Below, piece after piece: positions 1-10,792 of a stretch of DNA of 10,792 bases. Below the pieces are notes generated by a model. That model was not told the DNA's origin. It saw only the letters and a list, made by a program, of their open reading frames with translations, and ran no database searches. The stretch is taken from IMG/VR virus record IMGVR_UViG_2690315922_000018, positions 1 to 10,792 of that record; one strand, given 5' to 3'. Numbering within the stretch: the stretch's first letter is position 1; each line of letters starts with the position of its first letter. A program made the translations under genes and the position numbers. Origin of the DNA: a virus (Duplodnaviria; Heunggongvirae; Uroviricota; Caudoviricetes).

Positions 1-1236
1 CTACGATAACCGCGCATTCAACATGGCTACCTGTTCGTCGTTCATGTCATCAATCCACATACCGTAAATTTCATACACCATCTGCGCAGTTTCATGCCCC
101 ATCTGGCTGGCTATAAATGCCGGGTTCGCTCCTGCCGTCAACAGCCAACAGGCAAAAGTATGCCGCGTATGGTACGGATTACGGCGGCGAATACCAGCAC
201 GTTTTACTGCTGCATTCCATCTCGCCCCCAAACTGCTTACCGAGTAATAAGGTTTCTGTTTTCCGTTACACATCCTGGGCATGAAAACAAAATGCAGTTT
301 TTGCTTTTCGGTTCTGCCATACTCCCGATGATAAAAGGTGATTTCGCTTTTGCGATAATGTCCGGTCAGTTTGTATTGCTCCTTCAGTGCTTCAAGAGCA
401 GGCTGCAGTAATGTTACCGTTCGGATCCCGGCATTTGTTTTTGGAGGACCGAACATATCAAGTATCGTCAGGTTTCTTCTGACATTCACAATTCCCTTCT
501 CGAAATCCACATCCTCCCACGCCAGGGCTGCCAGTTCCCCGTGACGAAGCCCGGAGTAAACAGCAAATTTCCACAAGTTTTGACTCTGTCCTTTTTCTCT
601 TTCCATTAATGCATTGAATTCTGTTTTAGATAACGGATCAGGCTTTATTCTGTTTCGCTGTAATTTTTTTACTCCTTCAAATGGTTTGGTTGATATAAAT
701 CCCGACTGATACGCAAAACGTAACAACGAACATAGCAGGGCGATATAGTTATCAACTGTGCGCACGGTTCTTCCTTTTTTGTTGGCTCTTGGATTATCCT
801 GGTAAAGCGTTTCTCCATGCAGCAGTTCATTTCGGTAGCTTAAGATATCGCTATAACGAATATGTGATATTGGGGTACTCTCGCAAATGATTATTCTGAG
901 AGTTTTTAATTGTGATTTTGTTTTCTTCATTGTGTTTGTTGTTAACTCTGTCTCTTTAATTTTTGTCCAGATATCACAAAGCTCCCCGAATGTTTTTATG
1001 ACCCTCGTTGTCACCATTTTTGCCCCGGTATTGGACTGGGGAAAACGTCTTAAATACTCGAACTCGCCGGAATTTATTTCGTGAACTATCAATGCTCTTA
1101 AACTCCCGGCCTTTTTAATGTTACTGTTAGTAACCTCCCAGCCTTTCAATGTTTCCCGACATCGTTTCCCTCGAAACATGAACCAGATGCGAATGTATTT
1201 ACCTCGAATCTCGACACCTGTTGGTAATTTAGACAT
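1..1236 (-). CDS. intR: Tyrosine-type site-specific integrase, Rac prophage IntR family (411 aa)
   Basis: Full-length ORF from ATG at 1236..1234 to TAG at 3..1. N-terminal sequence MSKLPTGVEIRGKYIRIWFMFRGKRCRETLKGWEV closely matches the Rac integrase as I recall it; the C-terminal region carries the tyrosine-recombinase R...HxxR...Y pattern (HTRHTFACWLL ... MVYEIYGMW). It is the terminal gene of the leftward operon, as in lambdoid phages. Confidence 0.9.
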   Translation of the reverse strand: MSKLPTGVEIRGKYIRIWFMFRGKRCRETLKGWEVTNSNIKKAGSLRALIVHEINSGEFEYLRRFPQSNTGAKMVTTRVIKTFGELCDIWTKIKETELTTNTMKKTKSQLKTLRIIICESTPISHIRYSDILSYRNELLHGETLYQDNPRANKKGRTVRTVDNYIALLCSLLRFAYQSGFISTKPFEGVKKLQRNRIKPDPLSKTEFNALMEREKGQSQNLWKFAVYSGLRHGELAALAWEDVDFEKGIVNVRRNLTILDMFGPPKTNAGIRTVTLLQPALEALKEQYKLTGHYRKSEITFYHREYGRTEKQKLHFVFMPRMCNGKQKPYYSVSSLGARWNAAVKRAGIRRRNPYHTRHTFACWLLTAGANPAFIASQMGHETAQMVYEIYGMWIDDMNDEQVAMLNARLS

Positions 1237-1237
1237 A

Positions 1238-1453
1238 TTATGAGTCTTTGATAAACTGATTTATCTTCGGATAGTTGTACCAGATAATCCCTCGCTTGCT
1301 GTCTGGCTTACCTAAAGGAGATACTCGTTTGAAGTGGAGACCTTCCACCCAACAGTTCTGGCGATATGCTTCAATTTGTCTGGCCCCCAGACCAGTACGA
1401 AGCATCAGACCGTATTCAACCATCCACTCTTCATTAAAGATCACTTGTGCCAT
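1238..1453 (-). CDS. ydaQ: Excisionase-like protein, YdaQ/XisR family (71 aa)
   Basis: ATG at 1453..1451 with a GAGGTGA-type SD upstream; the ORF-track start at 1477 is TTG. Stop TAA at 1240..1238 lies 1 nt from the int start. The product [30 protein letters not shown]... matches Rac YdaQ as I recall it, in the xis position immediately upstream of int. Confidence 0.75.
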
Positions 1454-1552
1454 CGCATCACCTCTGGCGGGCGACAATATTAGACAGAAATTGACGCCCG
1501 GCGTTGATTATTAATAATCAGCTATGAAGTTTTAATTTGAATACAATGCAAC

Positions 1553-1753
1553 TTACCAAGACTGAAGTTTCTCGCAATTAAAATTCATCAGTTTTACTTT
1601 TTGCTCTCTGGAAACGCCTGCTTCTTTTTTCCCTGAGAGCATTTTTTCGCATTCTGATTTCGTTAGTTTAGATTTTGAATATCTTGTCCAGTTAGTAGGA
1701 GTACCACCTTCCTTTTCAATTGTGGCGGTAATTTTATACATAGATGCCTCCAT
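1553..1753 (-). CDS. ydaC: Small conserved prophage protein, YdaC-like (DUF1187)
   Basis: ORF 1553..1813; the likely start is the internal ATG at 1753 ([17 protein letters not shown]...), but the ATG at 1813 cannot be excluded and neither has a strong SD. Position between ralR and xis matches Rac synteny. Confidence 0.5.
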   Translation of the reverse strand: MEASMYKITATIEKEGGTPTNWTRYSKSKLTKSECEKMLSGKKEAGVSREQKVKLMNFNCEKLQSW

Positions 1754-1964
1754 TAATATTTTCAGCGGTTCGTTTATTCCATCTTTCGAGGGCTTCTTTC
1801 TCACTTCCACCATAGCCAGTTCGGGATTCGCATCCGTTGCATTTTGCCCGGTAATACCCTGAAATGGCTTTCACCGTTACAGATGGACAACCACAAAACG
1901 GACATGGTTTGACTTTTGTGTATCGCTCTGGTTTTTCTCCTGTGAGCTTTGTGGCTGCGCTCAT
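1734..1964 (-). CDS. ralR: Restriction-alleviation protein, Lar/RalR family (about 76 aa)
   Basis: Contains the CPFCG ... C..C ... ERWNKR pattern typical of the Lar family. Preferred start is ATG 1964..1962 (GGGGAG SD about 8 nt upstream), which forms an ATGA overlap with the exo stop; the alternative ATG at 1970 has the SD too close. Confidence 0.7.
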
Positions 1965-2641
1965 TTCCATTGCTCCCCAAATACAAAACCAATTTCAGCA
2001 AGTGCCTCGTCCATTTTTTCGATGAATTCTGGCACCATCTCGTCAAAACTCGCCATGTACTTTTCATCCCGCTCAACCACGACATAATGCAGGCCTTCAC
2101 GCTTCATACGCGGGTCATAGTTGGCAAAGTACCAGGCATCTTTTTGCGTCACCCACATGCTGTACTGCACCTGGGACATGTAAGCCGACTTTATGGCCCC
2201 GAAACCACCGAGCCGGAACTTCATGAAATCCCGGGAGGTAAACGGGCATTTCAGTTCAAGGCCGTTACCGTCGTTGCATAAGCCATCGGGAGAGCAGGCG
2301 GTGCGCATAGTCTCGTCACGATAGATGATCGGGGATTCAGTAACATTCACGCCGGAAATGAACTCAAACAGGGCTCTGGCGTCGTTCTCGTACTGTTTTC
2401 CCCAGGCCAGTGCTTTAGCGTTAACTTCCGGGGTCACTCCGGTGCAGACCTCAGCCAGCAGGGTGTGGAAGTAGGACATTTTCATGTCAGGCCATTTCTT
2501 TCCTGAGCGGGGTTTTGCTATCACGTTGTGAACTTCTGAAGCTGTGATGACGCCGAGCCGTAATTTGTGCCACGCATCATCCCCTTGTTTAACAGTTCTC
2601 ACGTCGATTCCTGTACGTTGCAGGATAATGTCAGGAGTCAT
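1961..2641 (-). CDS. exo: Lambda-type exonuclease (Red alpha / Exo, YqaJ fold), 226 aa
   Basis: Near-identical over its full length to phage lambda Exo as I recall it ([15 protein letters not shown]...[20 protein letters not shown]...[11 protein letters not shown]), same length of 226 aa. Start ATG 2641..2639 overlaps the bet stop TGA 2640..2638. Confidence 0.95.
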
Positions 2642-3417
2642 GCTGCCACCTTCTGCTCTGCGGCTTTCCGTTTCAGGAATCCAAGAGTTTTCACTGCTTC
2701 GGTCTGCGTCAGTTCTGATGATGCGCGAATGTCGCGGCGAAGTATCTGGGAACAGAGCGGCAATAAGTCGTCATCCCATGTTTTATCCAGGGCGATCAGC
2801 AGAGCGTTAATCTCCTGCATGGTTTCATCGTTAACCGGAGTGATGTCGCGTTCCGGCTGACTTTCTGATGCGGTATTTTCGACAATGCGCTCGGCTTCAT
2901 CCTTGTCATAGATACCAGCAAATCCGAAGGCCAGACGGGCACACTGAATCATGGCTTTATGCCGTAACATCCGCTTGGGGTGCGACTGCCACGGCCCCGT
3001 AACTTCTTTGCCTTCGCGGGTTTTGAATGGTTCGCGGCGGCACTCATCCATCCACTCGGTAACGCAGATCGGATGATTGCGGTCCTTGCGATAAATCCGG
3101 CATGTACAGGATTCATTGTCCTGCTCAAAGTCCATACCATCAAACTGCTGGTTTTCATTGATGATGCGGGACCAGCCATCAACGCCCACCACCGGAACGA
3201 TACCATTCTGCTTATCAGGGAAGGCGTAAATCTCTTTCGTCCACGGATTAAGACCGTACTGGTTGGCGACGATCAGCAGCGCGATGAATTGCGCATCGCT
3301 GGCATTGCCTTTAAATGCTGTCTGGCGAAGAGTGGCGATCAGTTCCTGCGGGTCGACAGTATCCATGCCGACACGTTCAGCCAGCTTCCCGGCCAGCGTT
3401 GCGAGTGCAGTACTCAT
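2638..3417 (-). CDS. bet: Lambda-type single-strand annealing protein (Red beta / Bet), 259 aa
   Basis: Near-identical to lambda Bet as I recall it ([19 protein letters not shown]...[42 protein letters not shown]...), about 2 aa shorter. ATG at 3417..3415. Confidence 0.95.
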
Positions 3418-3422
3418 TCGTT

Positions 3423-3722
3423 TTATACCTCTGAATCAATATCAACCTGGTGACGCGCAATGGTTTCAACCATGTACCGGATGTGTTCTGCCATGCGCTC
3501 CTGAAACTCAACATCATTATCAAATGCGCGGCTAATTGCCTGTTTACTGGCGCCGTGGCGTTGCAAATGGTCGATGCAGAGCGATTCAAACAGGTGCTGG
3601 GGCAGACCCTTTTCCAGGTCGCCCGCCAGCTCTGTTTCTTTTTCTTCGCGAACGATCTGCTGGTAGTGGCGTGACCATGCCAGATCTTCAATGCGATCAA
3701 AAATCAGGCATGTGCTCATCAT
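3423..3722 (-). CDS. gam: Lambda-type Gam (RecBCD inhibitor), short form of about 99 aa
   Basis: C-terminal 85 aa nearly identical to lambda Gam as I recall it (...[40 protein letters not shown]...[26 protein letters not shown]). First ATG is the tandem ATG ATG at 3722/3719; the ORF-track start at 3755 is a TTG. The start overlaps the 3' end of the upstream 663-aa ORF (stop at 3699..3697). Confidence 0.9.
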
Positions 3723-5688
3723 CCGCCACTCCAAAATTTTCAAGCCTGTTGGCAATCATCATTGCAATACCCGGAATTAATGGCGCTGAGGCTATACCCG
3801 CAGGATTCGCACATAAACCGTAAACCGCCGCAATCACCACTTGTCTTTTCCAGTCGAGTTTTTCTAATGATGAAGCTGCTGCTTCACCAGTTTCATCACT
3901 GCAATCGTGATGCTGATCGCTGCCAGCGTTCTCCTTGTGCAGATGTTTATTGTCTTCCATTTTCTCCGAATCTTTTTCCTGAGATTCATCCATATTTTCT
4001 TCATTAAAGGTTTCCTGATACGTTGCGTCTCCCATCACTGCACCACAGTCAGGGCAGCTATTTCCTCCAGCCTGACCGCAGGCGGTGTAAATTTTTTCTG
4101 CTTCCTGTTTCGCTACTGGCTCAGGTTGTTTCACATCCGGGCTGGTTTTTTCAGTTTCTGGTGTGTTTTGTTCTGTTTCTGGCTTATTCTGGTACACAGA
4201 ATCGCGGGTCTGGATCCCCTTGACCCATTTCGGATCGTTCGGGTCGCTAATTCCTTCAACAAACTCTCCGTGACAGGCAGCCAGTAATTTGTCTGCATCG
4301 ACAGGATTTTGGGGCGGAATGTTTTTCCGGGCTTCATGGAGTTCTGCCCTCAGTTCCTGATATTTCGCATCAACAGAATTTACCTGTGGCTGAGCATCCA
4401 TCGACTGCGTGTTCTGATGATGTTCAGTTGTATCCGGTTCCACTGTTTCAGGCGTTGCCTGTTCATTTGCCATTGCGCCAGATGGTTGTGGTTTTTCTTC
4501 ACCTTGTTTTCCTTCTTCTGTATCACGCTGTGGCATTGGGGCTGAGGAACGGCCGCAAGCAATATCCACGATTTCCTGATCAGGATTGGCGTGATTGGTT
4601 TCAATCAGCACCTTGTTCAGATATTCAGTGACGTGCGCGTGAATAACCTCAATACCGATAGGTGCTTCTTTCACGGATGCAACCACGATGGCGCGGGAAT
4701 AATCCAATCCCCCAGGCATAGCAGTGAATATGTCACGGAAAACAGAAAAGGGCGGCTTATTCTCTGCGATGATTTCATCAATACGTTTAGCGTGTGCCGG
4801 ATGAAGGTTATAAATATCAACATCCATTGAACGGGCCAGAATGCCAGTCGCAACATCGCGTGCCAGCGAAGCCTGATCGTGGACGAAATCTTCACCGCGA
4901 TCAGTTTTGTTCCCGCCGCCAGCATTAGCACCGGAGGGCGTGCGGGTGATGCGTGAAACACGATTCCCTTTCATCCACTCTTTTGTCAGCAGACCTCGAT
5001 CGGTGTAGTCGGTGCCCAGGTATGCTTCGAAAAAAGCAGTCATCAGTCCCAGATCTGAATTACCAGGATTAGGGAAAACTTTGTCAGTGTCACGAACCAG
5101 TTTGTGGAGATCTCGAATCTCAAGCAGTTCGAGTTGTGCTGTTTTATTTGAGATAGCCAGCGCTGTAACTGCGGGAAGTTCTTCATCCCGTGCAATGTGT
5201 AATGCCTGGAGTTCGTCGCGTGAAACGTGCGTTACTGGATTTTCACTGCCGTGTTGTGCCAGCCAGCGAACAGGTAATTCCTGACCTGAAATCGGCAGGA
5301 GCATGCTCTCCTCAATCTCAGTCATATCTTCGCCGTTGACGTTGGCATTGTCAGTGCTGGCTGGTTTGTCCTGTGCAGAGTGTGATGGCGCGATAAATAC
5401 CATTGTAATGCCATCTTCCCCGCCTTTTTCGTAACGGTTGCAGAATTCCGTATCAAATACGCCTTCTGGCGGAAGGTCATCAACAACGGGCAAATTTACG
5501 CGAACAGGTTTTTTAAAATCATCTTCGTCGTAGCCTGCATCGTCCATTGCAGCAATGCAGCGTGAAACCGCAACAGAAAGTTTTTTTGCCTCTGTCCAGA
5601 AGAAGCCGCCTTTGATGCCGAGGCGTTTTCTTGCGCCCTCATTTTTCGCGTCGCAATGTAACGCAAAATTTTGTTTGTCAGTGCTCAT
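3697..5688 (-). CDS. Large RecE (exodeoxyribonuclease VIII) N-terminal-region-like protein, 663 aa, with a divergent C-terminal tail and no evident nuclease domain
   Basis: Uninterrupted 663-codon ORF, ATG at 5688..5686 with a GAGG about 10 nt upstream. It sits immediately downstream of racC, which is the recE position in Rac. Long stretches ([101 protein letters not shown]) match what I recall of the non-catalytic N-terminal region of RecE; I cannot fully separate recall from priming by the sequence. The last 130 aa carry a Cys cluster ([12 protein letters not shown]), an acidic low-complexity run and a roughly 30-aa hydrophobic segment. Confidence 0.6.
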
Positions 5689-5756
5689 TGTTTTTTAACC
5701 TCAACTCAGATTAAAATTTAGTGCGAGTGATGAATAAATGTCCCAGGTTTTTCACT

Positions 5757-5789
5757 CAGGCCTGTACACTGTGCAGGCTTTCTTTTTTT
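5757..5789 (+). terminator. Putative rho-independent terminator on the plus strand (8-10 bp GC-rich stem followed by TTTCTTTTTTT)
   Basis: Stem 5759-5766 (GCCTGTAC) pairs with 5770-5777, followed by a T-rich run 5778-5789. On the minus strand the same hairpin is not followed by a U-run. Lies between the racC stop and the 663-aa ORF start. Confidence 0.35.
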
Positions 5790-6064
5790 CAAATTTCACC
5801 TTTTAATTTCATTGCAATCAGAGTTGCCAGAAACTCAGCTTTTTTTTCTGCTGGCAGATTATTTCCAATGTGCACCAGGCACATTTTTTTGACGCCTTCG
5901 TGAAGTGTTTTAACGTTGCCTGATGGACCGTCGATATCAACCACAGTGAATGGGGTTTCTTTATTTTCTGTTTTAATCACGTAGCCAATACGCTTTCCGT
6001 CCAGATTGACCTCGTGAACAATGTCATCAGTAGTTACAACAGTGGCTTCATAATTGGTAATCAT
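5789..6064 (-). CDS. racC: RacC (Rac prophage small protein), 91 aa
   Basis: ATG 6064..6062 with AAGGAG SD 7 nt upstream; product MITNYEATVVTTDDIVHEVNL.GKRIGYVIKTENKETPFTVVDIDGPSGNVKTL... matches Rac RacC as I recall it. The ORF-track N-terminal extension to 6112 is probably not used. Confidence 0.8.
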   Translation of the reverse strand: MITNYEATVVTTDDIVHEVNLDGKRIGYVIKTENKETPFTVVDIDGPSGNVKTLHEGVKKMCLVHIGNNLPAEKKAEFLATLIAMKLKGEI

Positions 6065-6138
6065 GTTTTTCTCCTTAATTAAGGTTGAGCGAATCCCTGC
6101 CATTGCTGGCATAAATTCAGTTTCGAATAGTCAGTTAA

Positions 6139-6309
6139 TTAAAGTTCGTGTGCCATCTGGTCTTTTTCGGCACAAGTTTCACTGCAATATTTTCTTGGTT
6201 CGTCTTTTGATAAAGTTCCGTGCATGAAATGAAGCATTCTTTCAATAGTTTTGCTTTCTTCAACGTCTTTTTTGCAAAGGTGGTAAGCACATTTTATTTT
6301 CTTATCCAT
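6139..6309 (-). CDS. ydaE: YdaE-like small Cys-rich (putative zinc-binding) protein, 56 aa; not in the ORF track
   Basis: Hand translation of the minus strand: ATG 6309..6307 -> [56 protein letters not shown], stop TAA 6141..6139. The start overlaps the kilR stop (TGATG). Position between kilR and racC matches Rac. Confidence 0.7.
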   Translation of the reverse strand: MDKKIKCAYHLCKKDVEESKTIERMLHFMHGTLSKDEPRKYCSETCAEKDQMAHEL

Positions 6310-6530
6310 CACCATGACTCCGCTTTTACAGGTAAACCATCACTACCGAGGAAGACTTTAATCATGCAGTCAGAAATGCATGTTTTTGTAGTCAGGCTAC
6401 GAATATAAAGTTTTCGCTTTTTTATATTGTTTGCCGAGGCGATATATGTCCGGCCTTCATGAAGAACATAATCGCCAGGAGTTACACACTGACGTGGTAT
6501 TTCATCAGTTCCGAAGTGATGAGTAATCAT
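6309..6530 (-). CDS. kilR: KilR-like killing protein (Rac KilR is an FtsZ inhibitor), 73 aa
   Basis: ATG 6530..6528 preceded by GGAGA with 6-nt spacing; the ORF-track start at 6542 lacks an SD. Product ...[67 protein letters not shown] matches KilR as I recall it. Confidence 0.8.
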
Positions 6531-6702
6531 AATTATCTCCATTTTTACAAATGAATTTTGTCGATGCGGTGCCTGGTGCCTCCAGGTGACGTTAACCAGT
6601 TAACAATTAACGCCGGATACAGAGAATCCACCCATAACACTGTTTTTAGCTTTAACTGTTCCGCGTGCGCTTAGCCGCATTCACCGCATCACAAAATTCA
6701 CT

Positions 6703-6751
6703 TTAAAAAGGGCGGACATCAGCCAAACTTCAAGAAAAAACTGATGCCGCC
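6703..6751 (-). terminator. Terminator-like hairpin on the minus strand (imperfect 11-bp stem, long loop, then CUUUUU)
   Basis: 6711-6722 GGCGGACATCAG pairs with 6741-6751 CTGATGCCGCC (one bulge). On the minus strand the stem is followed by CTTTTTAAAG (plus 6701-6710). The 18-nt loop is atypical for an intrinsic terminator, hence low confidence. Confidence 0.3.
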
Positions 6752-6969
6752 AGGACTACACACAGCAATGTCGTTATTTACAACCGGAGGCGCACTCCCA
6801 CCATTTAAATTTAACAGACAAGACCGACTCTTTATGGATACCGGAAGTGCGCCTTCGTGTTGTGCCCGGTTTTATTTCACCACCTCCGGGCTTCGGTGGT
6901 CTCGGCTATACCCCTACAGCGAGAGCTTGTGTTAACATTTCAATACCCTTACAGTTGAGAGTTATTGAT

Positions 6970-7458
6970 ATGTTGGATGTATTTACTCCATTGTTGAAAC
7001 TTTTTGCTAACGAGCCACTCGAAAGACTTATGTATACGATTATCATTTTTGGTCTCACTCTCTTGCTGATACCGAAAGAGTTTACTGTCGCATTCAATGC
7101 TTATACTGAAATACCTTGGCTCTTTCAGATTATCGTTTTTGCCTTTTCTTTCGTGGTCGCCATTTCCTTCTCAAGATTGCGAGCACATATTCAAAAGCAT
7201 TATTCATTACTACCAGAGCAACGAGTATTGCTTCGTTTATCTGAGAAAGAAATCGCTGTATTTAAAGATTTCCTTAAAACAGGAAATCTTATTATCACTT
7301 CTCCTTGCCGTAACCCGGTTATGAAAAAATTAGAACGGAAGGGCATCATTCAACATCAGAGTGATAGCGCAAACTGTTCTTATTATCTCGTCACCGAAAA
7401 ATACTCCCATTTTATGAAGTTATTCTGGAACAGCAGGAGTAGACGTTTTAATCGTTAG
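6970..7458 (+). CDS. sieB: Superinfection exclusion protein B (SieB), 162 aa, membrane protein
   Basis: ATG at 6970 (GAGAG 9 nt upstream). Product MLDVFTPLLKLFANEPLE.LMYTIIIFGLTL.LIPKEFTVAFNAYTEIPWLFQIIVFAFSFVVAISFSRLRAH... has two hydrophobic segments and matches Rac SieB as I recall it. The only plus-strand gene in the left half, as in Rac. The ORF-track extension back to 6847 is not supported. Confidence 0.85.
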   Translation: MLDVFTPLLKLFANEPLERLMYTIIIFGLTLLLIPKEFTVAFNAYTEIPWLFQIIVFAFSFVVAISFSRLRAHIQKHYSLLPEQRVLLRLSEKEIAVFKDFLKTGNLIITSPCRNPVMKKLERKGIIQHQSDSANCSYYLVTEKYSHFMKLFWNSRSRRFNR

Positions 7459-7610
7459 CTTACTGTGTGCTTCTCCAACCATCGGCGCGCACCAGTTTCG
7501 GTTTTAAATGTTTTGCTTTTGGTATACGTCATAGCAGTGAACGTTCCATCTTGGTTGGGGAACACGCCGCACACCAGGGATTCGTTGTTGCCGAGGTCGA
7601 TTTTTTGCAT
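7455..7610 (-). CDS. ydaF: YdaF-like small protein, 51 aa; not in the ORF track
   Basis: Hand translation: ATG 7610..7608 -> MQKIDLGNNESLVCGVFPNQDGTFTAMTYTKSKTFKTETGARRWLEKHTVS, stop TAA 7457..7455. Its stop overlaps the convergent sieB stop (TAG 7456-7458). Synteny with Rac ydaF. Confidence 0.65.
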   Translation of the reverse strand: MQKIDLGNNESLVCGVFPNQDGTFTAMTYTKSKTFKTETGARRWLEKHTVS

Positions 7611-7621
7611 TTTGGGAACTC

Positions 7622-7756
7622 TCACATCTTGTTGTTGCGGATAGAGGCTTCTGCTTGCCAGAGATCCCAGTCGTTGCTACGTAAAGCCTGCACAGCCTGG
7701 CTGTAAGTGATACCGCAACAATCCATCAAATACTGAACTACTTCGTAATGCACCAT
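7622..7756 (-). CDS. ydaG: YdaG-like small protein, 44 aa; not in the ORF track
   Basis: Hand translation: ATG 7756..7754 preceded by AAGGGAGAG SD -> MVHYEVVQYLMDCCGITYSQAVQALRSNDWDLWQAEASIRNNKM, stop TGA 7624..7622. Lies 11 nt upstream of ydaF, so the two are probably co-transcribed. Confidence 0.65.
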   Translation of the reverse strand: MVHYEVVQYLMDCCGITYSQAVQALRSNDWDLWQAEASIRNNKM

Positions 7757-7936
7757 CTTATCTCTCCCTTTAACGCCGGGTGGCGGAACGTTTTATCTAC
7801 TGCGCTTTGTATCAATCAACAACTGCCGTCATGTTCGTATGCCTCAGGCTGGCTACTTAGCCCTGTTCAGTGGCTGGATAACTCGAGGTATTGTCCTGCC
7901 GTTCTCTGGTGGGGCGTTGTTTGGATATGACAAATG

Positions 7937-7976
7937 CTCACATATCGTGAGTGATTTGTCAACTCAATATGTGAGC
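7937..7976. promoter_or_regulatory. Operator-like palindromes (OL-type) upstream of ydaG-ydaF, with a consensus TTGACA -35 on the minus strand
   Basis: 7937-7951 reads CTCACG-N4-GTGA on the minus strand, the same motif as the operators between the repressor and cro-like genes; 7963-7975 is a second near-palindrome CTCAATATGTGAG. A perfect TTGACA lies on the minus strand at 7962..7957, but no good -10 follows at 17 bp. Confidence 0.4.
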
Positions 7977-8003
7977 AATGTTGTTTTTGGATTTTTGATG
8001 GAC

Positions 8004-8036
8004 AAAAAAAGCCCTCGCTAATAGCGAGAGCTTTTT
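8004..8036. terminator. Bidirectional rho-independent terminator (A7 - 9-bp stem, 3-nt loop - T5) downstream of the repressor gene
   Basis: A-run 8004-8010, stem GCCCTCGCT (8011-8019) pairing with AGCGAGAGC (8023-8031) with one mismatch, T-run 8032-8036. On the minus strand it follows the repressor stop (8065..8063) by about 27 nt and is itself followed by U7. Confidence 0.65.
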
Positions 8037-8062
8037 GATTGGAATCGAGGGAGATTAAAGGT

Positions 8063-8452
8063 TTAGGAGGATTTCTTCTGTTGCCTGCTTCTTAGATATT
8101 TTTCCACATACTCATCAAGCTCTTGAAGACGGATTTCGAACAGATCAATCATGCGTGCTTGTTCTGAACCCGGGAGCTGATTAAACAGCTCTAGCATTTT
8201 TTTCTGGTTATCATTTAACCATGAGTACGTGTTTTCCTGTTCACCGAACATTAATTCTGCGGGGGAAATGCCTAGTACTTGGCCGAGGATGATCGCATCC
8301 TCAGCCCCCACACTCCTGGTGCCAGCTTCGTAGTTAGCAATACGAGAAGAACCTGACCAACCACATAGTTTTGCCAGGTTTCCCATACTTAATCCTCGAT
8401 TTAGGCGAGTGGCTTTTAGGCGCTCGCCTATTTGTTCTGCAATCGTTTTCAT
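8063..8452 (-). CDS. Prophage immunity repressor, XRE-family HTH (CI/RacR analogue), 129 aa, no S24 peptidase domain
   Basis: ATG 8452..8450; the ORF-track start at 8557 is TTG and the 35-codon extension would cover the operator region. N-terminal HTH (LKATRLNRGLSMGNLAKLCGWSGSSRIANYEAGTRSVGAEDAIILGQVLGISPAELMFGE) and a short helical C-terminus. Divergent from the cro-like gene and followed by a terminator. Sequence is not recognised as K-12 RacR, so it is probably a different immunity allele. Confidence 0.8.
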   Translation of the reverse strand: MKTIAEQIGERLKATRLNRGLSMGNLAKLCGWSGSSRIANYEAGTRSVGAEDAIILGQVLGISPAELMFGEQENTYSWLNDNQKKMLELFNQLPGSEQARMIDLFEIRLQELDEYVEKYLRSRQQKKSS

Positions 8453-8465
8453 AGTTCCGATTTTA

Positions 8466-8527
8466 TCACGATGTGTGAAATTGGCGGTACTCACGTATCT
8501 GTAGTTGATCTCGCTCACGAAGTGTGA
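8466..8527. promoter_or_regulatory. Three-site operator array (TCAC-N5-GTGA type) with divergent promoters between the repressor and cro-like genes
   Basis: Sites at 8466-8478 TCACGATGTGTGA, 8491-8503 TCACGTATCTGTA (imperfect) and 8515-8527 TCACGAAGTGTGA, spaced 25 and 24 bp centre to centre. Candidate rightward promoter: -35 TTGATC 8505-8510, -10 AATAAT 8527-8532 overlapping site 3, then AGGAGG SD 8539-8544. Candidate leftward -10 TAAAAT at 8465..8460, only 8 nt from the repressor ATG. Confidence 0.5.
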
Positions 8528-8549
8528 ATAATAGAAACAGGAGGTAGTG

Positions 8550-8792
8550 ATGAACAAAATTTCAACATATCGAAAACAGCTTGGGCTGTCTCAAAGACAA
8601 CTTGCTGTTCAGTTAGGGTGGATACAAAGCCGACTGGCAAATTACGAAGCAAATTTTCGTACCCCTGGACTAGAGGAGTGCAGAAAAATTGTTTCTACCC
8701 TTAATCGGCTTGGCGCTCATTGTGGACTTGACGATGTATTCCCCCCAGACGGTAAGCATAGCGAAAACAGCATAGGAGCGGTTGATTCATGA
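8550..8792 (+). CDS. Cro-like / YdaS-position HTH regulator, 80 aa
   Basis: ATG 8550 with AGGAGG SD 5 nt upstream (the ORF-track GTG at 8547 is too close to the SD). HTH motif LGLSQRQLAVQLGWIQSRLANYE. First gene of the rightward operon, divergent from the repressor. Stop overlaps the ydaT-like start (ATGA at 8789-8792). Confidence 0.75.
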   Translation: MNKISTYRKQLGLSQRQLAVQLGWIQSRLANYEANFRTPGLEECRKIVSTLNRLGAHCGLDDVFPPDGKHSENSIGAVDS

Positions 8793-9211
8793 AAATCAGG
8801 CATGAGCACATCGAATCAGTGTTGTTAGCCCTGGCAGCCGAAAAAGGGCAGGCGTGGGTCGCTAACGCAATTACTGAAGAATATCTGCGCCAGGGGGGCG
8901 GCGAATTGCCCCTGGTGCCTGGCAAGGACTGGAACAATCAGCAGAATATCTATCACCGTTGGTTGAAAGGTGAAACGAAAGCCCAAAGGGAAAAAATTCA
9001 GAAACTGATCCCTGCGGTTCTGGCAATTCTTCCGCGCGAGCTGCGTCACCGACTCTGCATCTTCGATACCCTGGAACGCCGTGCATTACTGGCGGCGCAG
9101 GAAGCGTTGAGTACGGCAATTGATGCGCATGATGATGCAGTCCAGGCCGTTTATCGTAAAGCACATTTCAGCGGCGGCGGGTCGCCCGGCGACTCTGTCG
9201 TAGTGCATTGA
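8789..9211 (+). CDS. ydaT: YdaT-like protein (proposed CII-like regulator family), 140 aa
   Basis: ATG 8789 with AGGAG about 10 nt upstream. N-terminal MKIRHEHIE... and C-terminal ...GGGSPGDSVVVH resemble Rac YdaT as I recall it, with the same length and the same position after the cro-like gene. Confidence 0.7.
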   Translation: MKIRHEHIESVLLALAAEKGQAWVANAITEEYLRQGGGELPLVPGKDWNNQQNIYHRWLKGETKAQREKIQKLIPAVLAILPRELRHRLCIFDTLERRALLAAQEALSTAIDAHDDAVQAVYRKAHFSGGGSPGDSVVVH

Positions 9212-9255
9212 TTGAAATTAATCGTGCCGGACTGTTTTGTTCGGTATCAGTTAAA

Positions 9256-9676
9256 TGTAACGCTTACAGCGTTACAAGGTGAAAACAATATGGCTTCAAA
9301 CTGGATAAAGCTCGAGGTTATTACGCCGGATAAGCCGGAAATATTCAGGCTTGCTGAGATTCTGAATATTGATCCAGATGCCGCATTAGGGAAAGTCATT
9401 CGCTTCTGGGCATGGGCGGATCAACAAATGATAGACGGTAACGCAGAGTGTAACGCTCGCGGCGTTACAAAAAGTGCAATAGATCGCATCACTTTTATGG
9501 CTGGTTTTGCTGATGCGTTAATTCAGGTTGGATGGCTGGTCGAAAATAACGGTGGGCTTTCTCTACCTAACTTTGAACGTCATAACGGAAAAAGCTCTAA
9601 AAAACGGGCGATTACAAACGAGAGGGTTACAAAAATACGCGAACTGAAACGAAAAGGTAACGCTGCCAGCGTTACA
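9256..9676. repeat. Three dispersed palindromes TGTAACGCT-N3-5-AGCGTTACA plus extra GTTACA(A) half-sites; candidate iterons or origin
   Basis: 9256-9276 TGTAACGCTTACAGCGTTACA (perfect 9-bp arms), 9449-9469 TGTAACGCTCGCGGCGTTACA, 9656-9676 GGTAACGCTGCCAGCGTTACA; further half-sites GGTAACGCA 9437-9445, GGTTACAAAAA 9625-9635 and ATTACAAA 9612-9619. Confidence 0.45.
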
Positions 9677-10078
9677 CAAACGGATCAAAAAGCGTTACCA
9701 GAGGAAGAGGAAGAGGAAGATATAAATACTGATCTCCCCCTAAATCCCCCTCGCCAAAAACGAGCATCTAAAAAATTCGAGCCGGAGGCTATTGAGTTGC
9801 CCGATTGGTTGCCGGAAACACTCTGGCATGAGTGGGTCCGGTTCAGGCAGGCATTGCGAAAACCGATTCGAACGGAGCAGGGCGCTAACGGGGCGATACG
9901 GGAACTGGAAAAATTCCGCCAGCAGGGTTTTACCCCTGAGCAGGTGATTCGACACAGCATCGCCAACGAATACCAGGGCTTGTTCGCGCCGAAAGGCGTT
10001 CGACCGGAGACGTTGCCTCGGCAGGTTAACACCGTCTCGTTGCCGGACAGTGCGATTCCGCCAGGCTTCAGGGGGTAA
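9290..10078 (+). CDS. ydaU: YdaU-like putative replication protein (DUF1376 family), 262 aa
   Basis: ATG 9290 with AGGTGA 7 nt upstream; the ORF-track start at 9212 is TTG. Position immediately upstream of the DnaC-like gene matches Rac ydaU. Contains an EEEEEED acidic stretch and the palindromic repeats listed separately. Confidence 0.6.
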   Translation: MASNWIKLEVITPDKPEIFRLAEILNIDPDAALGKVIRFWAWADQQMIDGNAECNARGVTKSAIDRITFMAGFADALIQVGWLVENNGGLSLPNFERHNGKSSKKRAITNERVTKIRELKRKGNAASVTQTDQKALPEEEEEEDINTDLPLNPPRQKRASKKFEPEAIELPDWLPETLWHEWVRFRQALRKPIRTEQGANGAIRELEKFRQQGFTPEQVIRHSIANEYQGLFAPKGVRPETLPRQVNTVSLPDSAIPPGFRG

Positions 10079-10084
10079 CGAACC

Positions 10085-10792
10085 ATGAAAAATATTGCGA
10101 CAGGCGGCGTTCTGGAACGTATCCGCAGACTGACCCCACCACATGTAACCGCCCCATTCAGAACGGTTGCGGAGTGGCGCGAGTGGCAACTTGCTGAAGG
10201 CCAGAAACGTTGCGAGGAGATCAACCGCCTGAATCGTCAGTTGCGGGTGGAAAAAATCCTGAATCGCTCTGGCATCCAGCCGTTGCACCGCAAATGCTCG
10301 TTTGCGAATTACCAGGTGCAGAACGACGGCCAGCGATACGCGTTAAGTCAGGCGAAATCCATCGCCGATGAACTGATGACCGGGTGTACAAATTTTGCGT
10401 TCAGCGGAAAACCTGGTACCGGGAAGAACCATTTAGCGGCAGCTATCGGAAATCGCCTGCTGAAAGATGGCCAGACAGTGATTGTGGTTACTGTGGCTGA
10501 TGTTATGAGTGCCCTGCATGCCAGCTATGACGACGGGCAGTCAGGCGAAAAATTTTTGCGGGAACTGTGCGAAGTGGATCTGCTGGTTCTTGATGAGATT
10601 GGCATTCAGCGCGAGACGAAAAACGAGCAGGTGGTACTGCACCAGATTATTGATCGACGGACAGCGTCGATGCGTAGCGTGGGAATGCTGACAAACCTGA
10701 ACTATGAGGCCATGAAAACATTGCTCGGTGAGCGGATTATGGATCGCATGACCATGAACGGCGGACGCTGGGTGAATTTTAACTGGGAAAGC
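10085..10792 (+). CDS. ydaV: DnaC-like replication ATPase / helicase loader (YdaV family), 3' end truncated by the window
   Basis: ATG 10085 (GGGGG 9 nt upstream), open in frame to the window end, 236 codons, hence absent from the ORF track. Walker A GKPGTGKNHLAAAIG and Walker B DLLVLDEIG; position after ydaU as in Rac. Confidence 0.85.
   Translation, partial: MKNIATGGVLERIRRLTPPHVTAPFRTVAEWREWQLAEGQKRCEEINRLNRQLRVEKILNRSGIQPLHRKCSFANYQVQNDGQRYALSQAKSIADELMTGCTNFAFSGKPGTGKNHLAAAIGNRLLKDGQTVIVVTVADVMSALHASYDDGQSGEKFLRELCEVDLLVLDEIGIQRETKNEQVVLHQIIDRRTASMRSVGMLTNLNYEAMKTLLGERIMDRMTMNGGRWVNFNWES

Follow-up and report, generated by a model that had tools for sequence, protein, structure and literature searches.

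What replaces the nuclease domain in a RecE-like protein that lacks it? This question is raised by a large open reading frame (ORF) in a 10,792-nucleotide (nt) stretch of Caudoviricetes DNA (IMG/VR record IMGVR_UViG_2690315922_000018, positions 1 to 10,792; hereafter the window), which represents the early-left arm of a Rac-like lambdoid prophage. The ORF occupies positions 3697-5688 of the minus strand, the strand to which all window coordinates below refer, and encodes 663 amino acids (aa) followed by a TGA stop codon at 3699-3697; its only Pfam match is PF06630 (Exonuc_VIII, E 8.4e-32). An initial annotation of the DNA had singled out the last 130 residues as unlike the rest of the protein, describing a possible metal-binding knuckle, an acidic disordered linker and a hydrophobic stretch that could be a membrane anchor, and had suggested that this tail might be a remnant of another gene or a novel membrane-targeting module. 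Reading the sequence directly, we find the quoted tail residues and the stop at 3697 as described, and a different account of what they represent. The ORF probably encodes a nuclease-less member of the RecE family, residing in a Rac-like Escherichia albertii prophage, in which a 42-residue helical hairpin replaces the nuclease and serves, we infer, a packing or partner-binding role.

Several comparisons place the end of the RecE homology at the same point. Residues 1-605 are 71% identical to a Rac-type RecE and 91% identical to P0019, a 1048-aa E. albertii RecE-like protein bearing the PF12684 nuclease, with the latter identity ending at ...SDETGEA, and the DNA similarity to Rac recE ends at window position 3874. 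The ORF product matches positions 1-621 of the 883 in the phrog_607 profile. In phmmer searches of the PDB, Rac RecE residues 605-866 match 3H4R, the solved nuclease domain, with an E value of 1e-176, whereas the large ORF has no PDB sequence match, 3H4R included; likewise, a Pfam scan did not find the PF12684 PD-(D/E)XK nuclease in the ORF. The same holds for an identical protein from E. albertii (P0009), in which PF06630 is present and PF12684 is absent. The foreign part of the protein thus comprises its final 58 residues (606-663; 3700-3873), which start where the solved nuclease domain starts. Because identity to P0019 and to Rac RecE stops there, 3H4R is unmatched and Pfam reports PF06630 only, these residues take the place of the RecE nuclease domain. 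The protein is composed of a RecE N-terminal region, a disordered linker and a 42-residue core (DWKRQ...LENFG). It retains the N-terminal PF06630 domain expected of RecE, and lacks both the C-terminal nuclease and a cognate recT gene downstream. As there is no nuclease domain, the name exodeoxyribonuclease VIII is a misnomer for this product. The first 605 residues are also nearer to P0019 (91%), which has a longer, nuclease-type C-terminus, than to those of other tail-type proteins (81-88%), and for this reason we regard the C-terminal modules as having been swapped recently at the boundary between linker and domain.

Part of the tail delineated initially proved to be ordinary RecE. Residues 532-605, which contain both the cysteine cluster and the acidic tract, match Rac-type RecE column for column in a MAFFT alignment and are ~90% identical to the same stretch of the nuclease-bearing P0019; the knuckle and acidic tract are therefore standard features of the RecE linker, and it is the last 58 residues that do not align to canonical RecE. 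Alignment to canonical RecE, which the initial annotation had named as grounds for refuting its reading, is thus seen for part of the tail. The degenerate zinc-knuckle motif (residues 534-548; 4045-4089) aligns to CNACGQTGGDNCPDC in Rac RecE and to P0019. It reads YTAC...CPDC in the window allele, with three cysteines and Tyr534 (4087-4089) in place of the first, whereas the family consensus CxxC-x7-CxxC is found in 99 of the 107 relatives in which the motif could be located. The tyrosine is restricted to eight near-identical E. albertii sequences. Thus, most relatives possess the four Cys or His ligands of a zinc knuckle and the window allele does not, and if RecE binds zinc at all, this capacity may have been lost in the Tyr534 allele. 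The acidic low-complexity linker (residues 554-605; 3874-4029) is canonical RecE through ...SDETGEAA. The disorder ascribed to it initially is borne out by AlphaFold2, in which residues 453-606, including knuckle and linker, have predicted local distance difference test (pLDDT) values <50, consistent with disorder; it is the supposed foreign origin of both elements that does not hold.

For the foreign segment, the pattern of substitution shows that the hairpin is read as protein in this frame and is strongly constrained by purifying selection. In comparisons among the window, one Escherichia coli relative, phage 75/02 Stx and the O104:H4 prophage, the 42-codon core (D612...G653, residues 612-653; 3730-3855) exhibits ratios of nonsynonymous to synonymous substitution rates (dN/dS) of 0.05-0.09, with dS of 1.1-1.5. 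When relatives with as little as 32% overall identity are included in the alignment, the majority of invariant columns fall in the tail (A620, A621, G624, L625, C626, N628, P629, A630, I638, A642 and A646), and the motif AA..GLCANPA is invariant. Windowed conservation reaches a maximum at residues 601-645, where it equals that of the core N-terminal blocks, and the linker is poorly conserved. No conserved overlapping gene in another frame was found at the tail. On the basis of this conservation, we define a tail-bearing RecE-N subfamily by the motif [WFY][KR]Q.L.[IL]AA[VIL].GLCANPA...I..[MA]A...A, lying no more than ~45 residues from the stop, which is present in the large ORF.

These observations bear directly on whether the tail is functional at all. 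It might instead be non-functional read-through, the frame having stayed open by chance where recombination joined recE to sequence upstream of gam, or a degenerate remnant of the nuclease or of kil/cIII; a swap at the border between modules of a mosaic phage genome region is in keeping with such an origin, as is the variation of the final 4-10 residues with the type of junction to gam. We consider this highly improbable, given the low dN/dS at dS >1 and the occurrence of the same motif in relatives only 32% identical, in prophages without gam in the examined stretches. A MAFFT alignment against IYYGISNENYHAG gave a hint that the tail could derive from the first nuclease helices, but hhalign of the tail with the RecE nuclease domain rejected this candidate (probability 0.1%). 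A search of 50,697 phage records with tblastn located the tail solely at the 3′ ends of genes annotated as exodeoxyribonuclease VIII, that is, at RecE-like C-termini, and revealed no similarity to Kil or cIII. Moreover, an intact KilR gene (6309-6530; product 96% identical to annotated KilR) is present as a separate gene upstream, and hence the tail neither occupies the kil/cIII position of lambda nor represents a fused remnant of these genes, both of which had been proposed.

AlphaFold2 models the core as two helices of 15 and 17 residues with pLDDT values of 67-81, spanning residues 613-627 (3808-3852) and approximately residues 635-651 (3736-3786), joined by a C-A-N-P-A turn in which N-P-A is invariant. 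The same arrangement is obtained in the full-length model and with the tail alone. The selection, invariant columns and model together indicate that the tail core is a real domain, a small helical hairpin. It falls outside all Pfam families: when scanned, seven tail sequences and the cyanobacterial homologues described below yielded only chance-level matches to Elicitin and ST enterotoxin. Searching the PDB with the full model using Foldseek returned nothing at E <1, and no structure search yielded an informative fold. We also entertained a Rad50-like zinc hook, in which C626 and Cys/His631 at the hairpin apex would coordinate metal across two protomers. This candidate was dropped because the second ligand is glycine in this allele and is absent in the cyanobacterial homologues.

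Might the hairpin nevertheless be a C-terminal membrane anchor, as suggested initially, or a re-entrant hairpin that brings the RecE-like protein to the inner membrane? The hydrophobic stretch does contain 32 uncharged residues in succession, rich in Ala, Gly and Pro, with a best Kyte-Doolittle 19-residue mean of 1.62 that is borderline at the classical threshold, and its A/G-rich small-xxx-small pattern is known from membrane helices too. However, the predicted helices are split by the invariant N-P-A turn and, at 15 and 17 residues, each is too short to span the bilayer. The insertion energy of the best 19-residue segment is +5.1 kcal/mol, compared with +0.5 for the SieB membrane segment encoded in the same window (position-independent Hessa calculation, with the scale values of Hessa et al. 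2005). Relatives have Kyte-Doolittle maxima of 0.95-1.3 and carry charged or polar residues at the homologous positions, with FDEIAEMA, FEEIPHMA, FDRLPDMA or YDDLPIMATELAR (Asp/Glu/Arg) in helix 2 and Gln or Lys in helix 1. Helix 2 of distant relatives is amphipathic (hydrophobic moment 0.43-0.57) with an acidic polar face, whereas the polar face of membrane-targeting helices is usually basic. In the stand-alone cyanobacterial homologues, helix 2 (APEELAERAVAIAEAVIEKK) is clearly soluble and amphipathic. The tail thus lacks a helix of at least ~19 residues, favourable insertion and conserved hydrophobicity, and its short helices, high insertion energy, charged relatives and acidic amphipathic face make membrane anchoring unlikely, to the point that we assign this explanation a small probability. 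Of the proposal of a novel, foreign module, the foreign and novel part is upheld for the extreme C-terminal 58 residues, and membrane targeting is not.

A soluble role for the hairpin is suggested by the arrangement of its conserved residues. The invariant positions are spaced i/i+4 (A620/G624; I638/A642/A646), which suggests tight antiparallel packing, in which the helices would contact each other through small-residue faces formed by A620, A621 and G624 in helix 1 and by I638, A642 and A646 in helix 2. The hydrophobic surface left over could then serve as an oligomerisation or partner-binding module, engaging either another copy of the hairpin or a partner. In canonical RecE, four N-terminal regions, described as being of unknown function, are held together by a tetrameric nuclease ring (PMC11611040). 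By analogy, the hairpin might keep the N-terminal regions assembled as the tetrameric nuclease domain does in canonical RecE, and it would not act as a membrane anchor. Several considerations weigh against the proposal that a packing or partner-binding hairpin has replaced the nuclease. The AlphaFold2 confidence is only moderate and the alignments are shallow, with 10-20 sequences; oligomerisation or partner binding is deduced from the residue pattern and from the analogy with the nuclease tetramer; and the helices of the E. coli/E. albertii subtype are almost wholly hydrophobic, which leaves some room for peripheral or re-entrant membrane association.

The distribution of the tail provides a further view of its role. 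A profile search of 1.84 billion representative proteins gave 13 matches, and those that were read are RecE-like C-termini or short fragments, with the exception of two long proteins with weak internal matches. Short proteins recovered by word-indexed searches likewise resemble fragments of disrupted recE-like genes. Tail-bearing phages identified by tblastn are 75/02 Stx, POCJ13, PhiR5_2 and phiSTEC1589-Stx1c, and tail DNA is present in 106 of 5426 complete E. coli genomes (~2%), O104:H4 C227-11 among them. We examined 85 tail loci from scans of GTDB genomes and IMG/VR. Most (65) are of the E. coli type and are followed immediately by gam, usually with bet and exo behind it. The remaining 20 loci, in Buttiauxella, Lelliottia, Cedecea and others, carry distant tails on proteins of 341-736 aa, in most of which a RecE N-terminal region can be recognised; within the searched stretches, the DNA downstream of them yielded no gam, bet, exo, recT or RecE nuclease, and eight of them have an integrase 0.5-0.9 kb downstream. 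Each of the seven tail sequences tested matches the C-terminus of phrog_26058, a functionally uncharacterised family; the tails align at ~573-630 of its 633-position profile (best E 3.5e-11), which the middle of the window ORF matches as well, and phrog_26058 represents a more distant and unannotated branch of the same family. These results establish the hairpin as the C-terminal domain native to a family of RecE-like prophage proteins without a nuclease. Among the tail-bearing loci in IMG/VR, a Shigella-type subgroup (L033-L039 and L069; ...NFGVTSDERLPDF) has gam, with neither bet nor exo detected downstream by tblastn in the stretches examined; its recE-like ORFs are often truncated (21-646 aa), which suggests that these prophages are decaying.

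The adjacency to gam raises the possibility that the hairpin is a docking site for Gam, Bet or Exo, coupling the RecE N-terminal region to the lambda-type recombination module. This would fit the arrangement in which gam directly follows all 65 E. coli-type tails, with bet and exo in most. It is difficult to reconcile with the 20 distant prophages, where the domain is kept with no Red or RecET genes downstream in the searched stretches, and with stand-alone cyanobacterial proteins that keep it too; we therefore regard docking to Red proteins as unlikely. Since the distant loci show the tail without gam detected downstream, the tail does not depend on gam, and since distant members show no Red genes nearby, binding of Red proteins cannot be the core role of the hairpin.

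The cyanobacterial proteins are 65-68 aa long and were found in three Spirulina-like metagenome-assembled genomes (L013 115-399, L014 1525-1731 and L015 3986-4183, all on the plus strand). With the sequence MEGHHLDRIGFRQHLIIAAVQGLCANPTQDGIAPEELAERAVAIAEAVIEKK..., they contain FRQxLIIAAVQGLCANP followed by an amphipathic helix, and thus share the motif of the tail; unlike the tail-bearing prophage proteins, they have no RecE-like N-terminal region, lie in an unrelated genomic context and possess a fully soluble helix 2. The homologue in L015 is encoded just downstream of a ParA-like ATPase gene. Comparison with the tail profile by hhalign gives a probability of 97.4% and an E value of 1.2e-11, the latter inflated by selection of these proteins through a pattern search; in an unbiased scan they match the C-terminus of phrog_26058 with E values of 6e-5 to 2e-4. 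The hairpin therefore appears to be a small autonomous domain, and the notion that the tail module can stand as a gene of its own gains some evolutionary support from these 65-aa homologues. A bolder interpretation, which we offer only tentatively and consider rather doubtful, is that the RecE N-terminal region plus hairpin is an autonomous and perhaps ancestral form with a nuclease-independent function, that canonical RecE arose by replacement of the hairpin with a nuclease, and that the hairpin is a portable oligomerisation or partner-binding domain. Possible functions for such a form include DNA-end tethering or action as a host-takeover or anti-defence factor of the early-left operon. That the RecE N-terminal region persists in prophages showing no nearby recombinase, and does so with a conserved C-terminal domain of its own, argues for a nuclease-independent function.

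Immediately beyond the hairpin, the large ORF overlaps gam (3423-3722; Pfam Gam over the entire profile, E 3.5e-56). Two adjacent ATG codons, at 3719 and 3722, provide alternative starts for a Gam protein of 98 or 99 aa, and the start chosen by the Prokaryotic Genome Annotation Pipeline (PGAP) at locus L005 is the counterpart of 3719. The overlap reported initially is real, and its length is 23 nt (ATG 3719) or 26 nt (ATG 3722), not 22-25 nt. A Shine-Dalgarno sequence for gam, GGAG, lies at 3732-3729 within the F-G-V codons of the tail, and the variable C-terminal extension of 10 residues plus TGA (3697-3729) runs across the ribosome-binding region and start of gam; what follows G653 is simply the gam start region read in the other frame. 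Three types of junction were observed: the 23/26-nt overlap in the window and L005; a 4-nt ATGA overlap in phage 75/02 Stx and the O104:H4 prophage, where the protein ends ...NFGGDKS*; and a 2-nt gap in P0133. In both overlap types, conservation extends through ...LENFG and the GGAG sits in the codons closing that motif. As the long overlap is only one of three junction types, we regard it as incidental, reflecting the ordinary compact packing of phage genes.

The same junctions speak to whether the tail is synthesised on its own as a small, internally initiated protein, or as a RecE-tail-Gam fusion through a +1 slip at UUU UGA (3702-3697). In-frame methionine codons do lie upstream of the core (M552, M564 and M577), but no stand-alone tail gene occurs in enterobacterial prophages; the separate small gene sought at this position is missing from related prophages, and the short matches there are apparent fragments of disrupted recE-like genes. 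As for a fusion, the stop context GAT TTT TGA TCG (3694-3705) would permit a +1 slip of tRNA-Phe along the U run, which leads into the gam frame, and one fragment in the databases, P0136, has the tail fused in frame to Gam. The slip site is, however, absent from the ATGA-overlap and gap junctions, no stimulatory Shine-Dalgarno sequence is located close upstream, and a homopolymer sequencing error is the likelier and simpler account of P0136. Programmed frameshifting, being specific to one junction type, was judged unlikely, and only the slightest probability attaches to either a separate tail protein or a tail-Gam fusion.

The large ORF is therefore best viewed as a variant within a known family, one that databases already contain under a misleading name and that the literature has mentioned in passing; the conserved C-terminal hairpin is not known to have been described before. 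With Rac RecE of E. coli K-12 (866 aa; nuclease solved as PDB 3H4R), it shares homology throughout the N-terminal 605 residues, including PF06630, two conserved blocks, the CxxC-x7-CxxC knuckle (altered by Tyr534 in the window allele) and the acidic linker, as well as a genomic position after kilR, ydaE and racC within an early-left operon of the Rac-like kind. In contrast to Rac RecE, it lacks PF12684 (3H4R, residues 605-866) and a RecE-specific RecT partner, and has instead the 58-aa hairpin tail followed by gam, bet and exo. The same combination of RecE N-terminal region and tail is found in gp06 ('exonuclease VII/VIII') of Shigella phage 75/02 Stx and of POCJ13, and in WP_001271588 of the E. 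coli O104:H4 C227-11 prophage. These proteins are ~62% identical overall and 72-78% identical in the tail core (tblastn), have the same gam-bet-exo neighbours, and differ in their 4-nt ATGA junction to gam and in a tail ending ...NFGGDKS. Nuclease-less 'RecE-2' proteins, with unknown roles, have been reported in lambdoid recombination modules, with no conserved C-terminal domain described (Genome Res 2025, PMC12315714). As a RecE relative without nuclease in a lambdoid early-left operon, the large ORF fits the RecE-2 description and may belong to the set studied by those authors (PMC12315714).

The consequences for annotation are broader than this locus, as several hundred database proteins named exodeoxyribonuclease VIII or RecE-family exonuclease have no nuclease domain, among them proteins of Shiga toxin (Stx)-converting phages and of the O104:H4 outbreak-strain prophage. 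To our knowledge, no function has been assigned to the first 600 residues of RecE since the enzyme was first described. Full-length RecE enables linear-linear cloning, and hence the N-terminal region is relevant to recombineering. The tail-bearing proteins provide a natural construct for probing this region, and if the autonomous form proposed above were real they would amount to a natural separation-of-function allele for it. No concept is changed by these findings and the mechanism is inferred; their main value lies in the corrected annotation and in this handle on the RecE N-terminal region. Within that region, a block at residues ~233-268 (window 4900-4990) is near-invariant even in RecE-like proteins 32% identical overall and is modelled by AlphaFold2 as a low-confidence loop, making it a candidate functional site.

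In the window prophage, recombination activities are provided by lambda-type Exo, Bet and Gam. Directly 3′ of the large ORF lie gam, lambda-type bet (2638-3417; single-strand annealing protein, Pfam RecT family E 3e-33) and exo (1961-2641; lambda exonuclease of the YqaJ type, Pfam YqaJ E 6.5e-30), with no cognate recT directly downstream; exo is the sole nuclease of the recombination module here. The counterpart of bet in syntenic E. coli loci is labelled 'phage recombination protein Bet'. Just 3′ of exo is a gene for Lar restriction alleviation (1734-1970; PF14354, E 5e-14), the start of which overlaps the 3′ end of exo by 10 nt. The gene for a DUF1187 protein (1553-1813) comes after it, as at the P0133 locus (L009), followed by a DUF1233 excisionase (1238-1477) and the integrase (1-1236). 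Upstream of the large ORF are genes for RacC (5789-6064), a YdaE-like protein (6139-6315) and KilR, beyond which lie sieB (plus strand), DUF1391, a repressor/cro pair and YdaT. The YdaE-like protein, of 58 aa, displays a Cys/His pattern and a sub-threshold match to the Rtr1/RPAP2 zinc finger (E 1.6e-5). At the position of Rac ydaG, a 44-aa protein (7622-7756) matches a UBA-like domain above the Pfam cut-off (E 5e-5).

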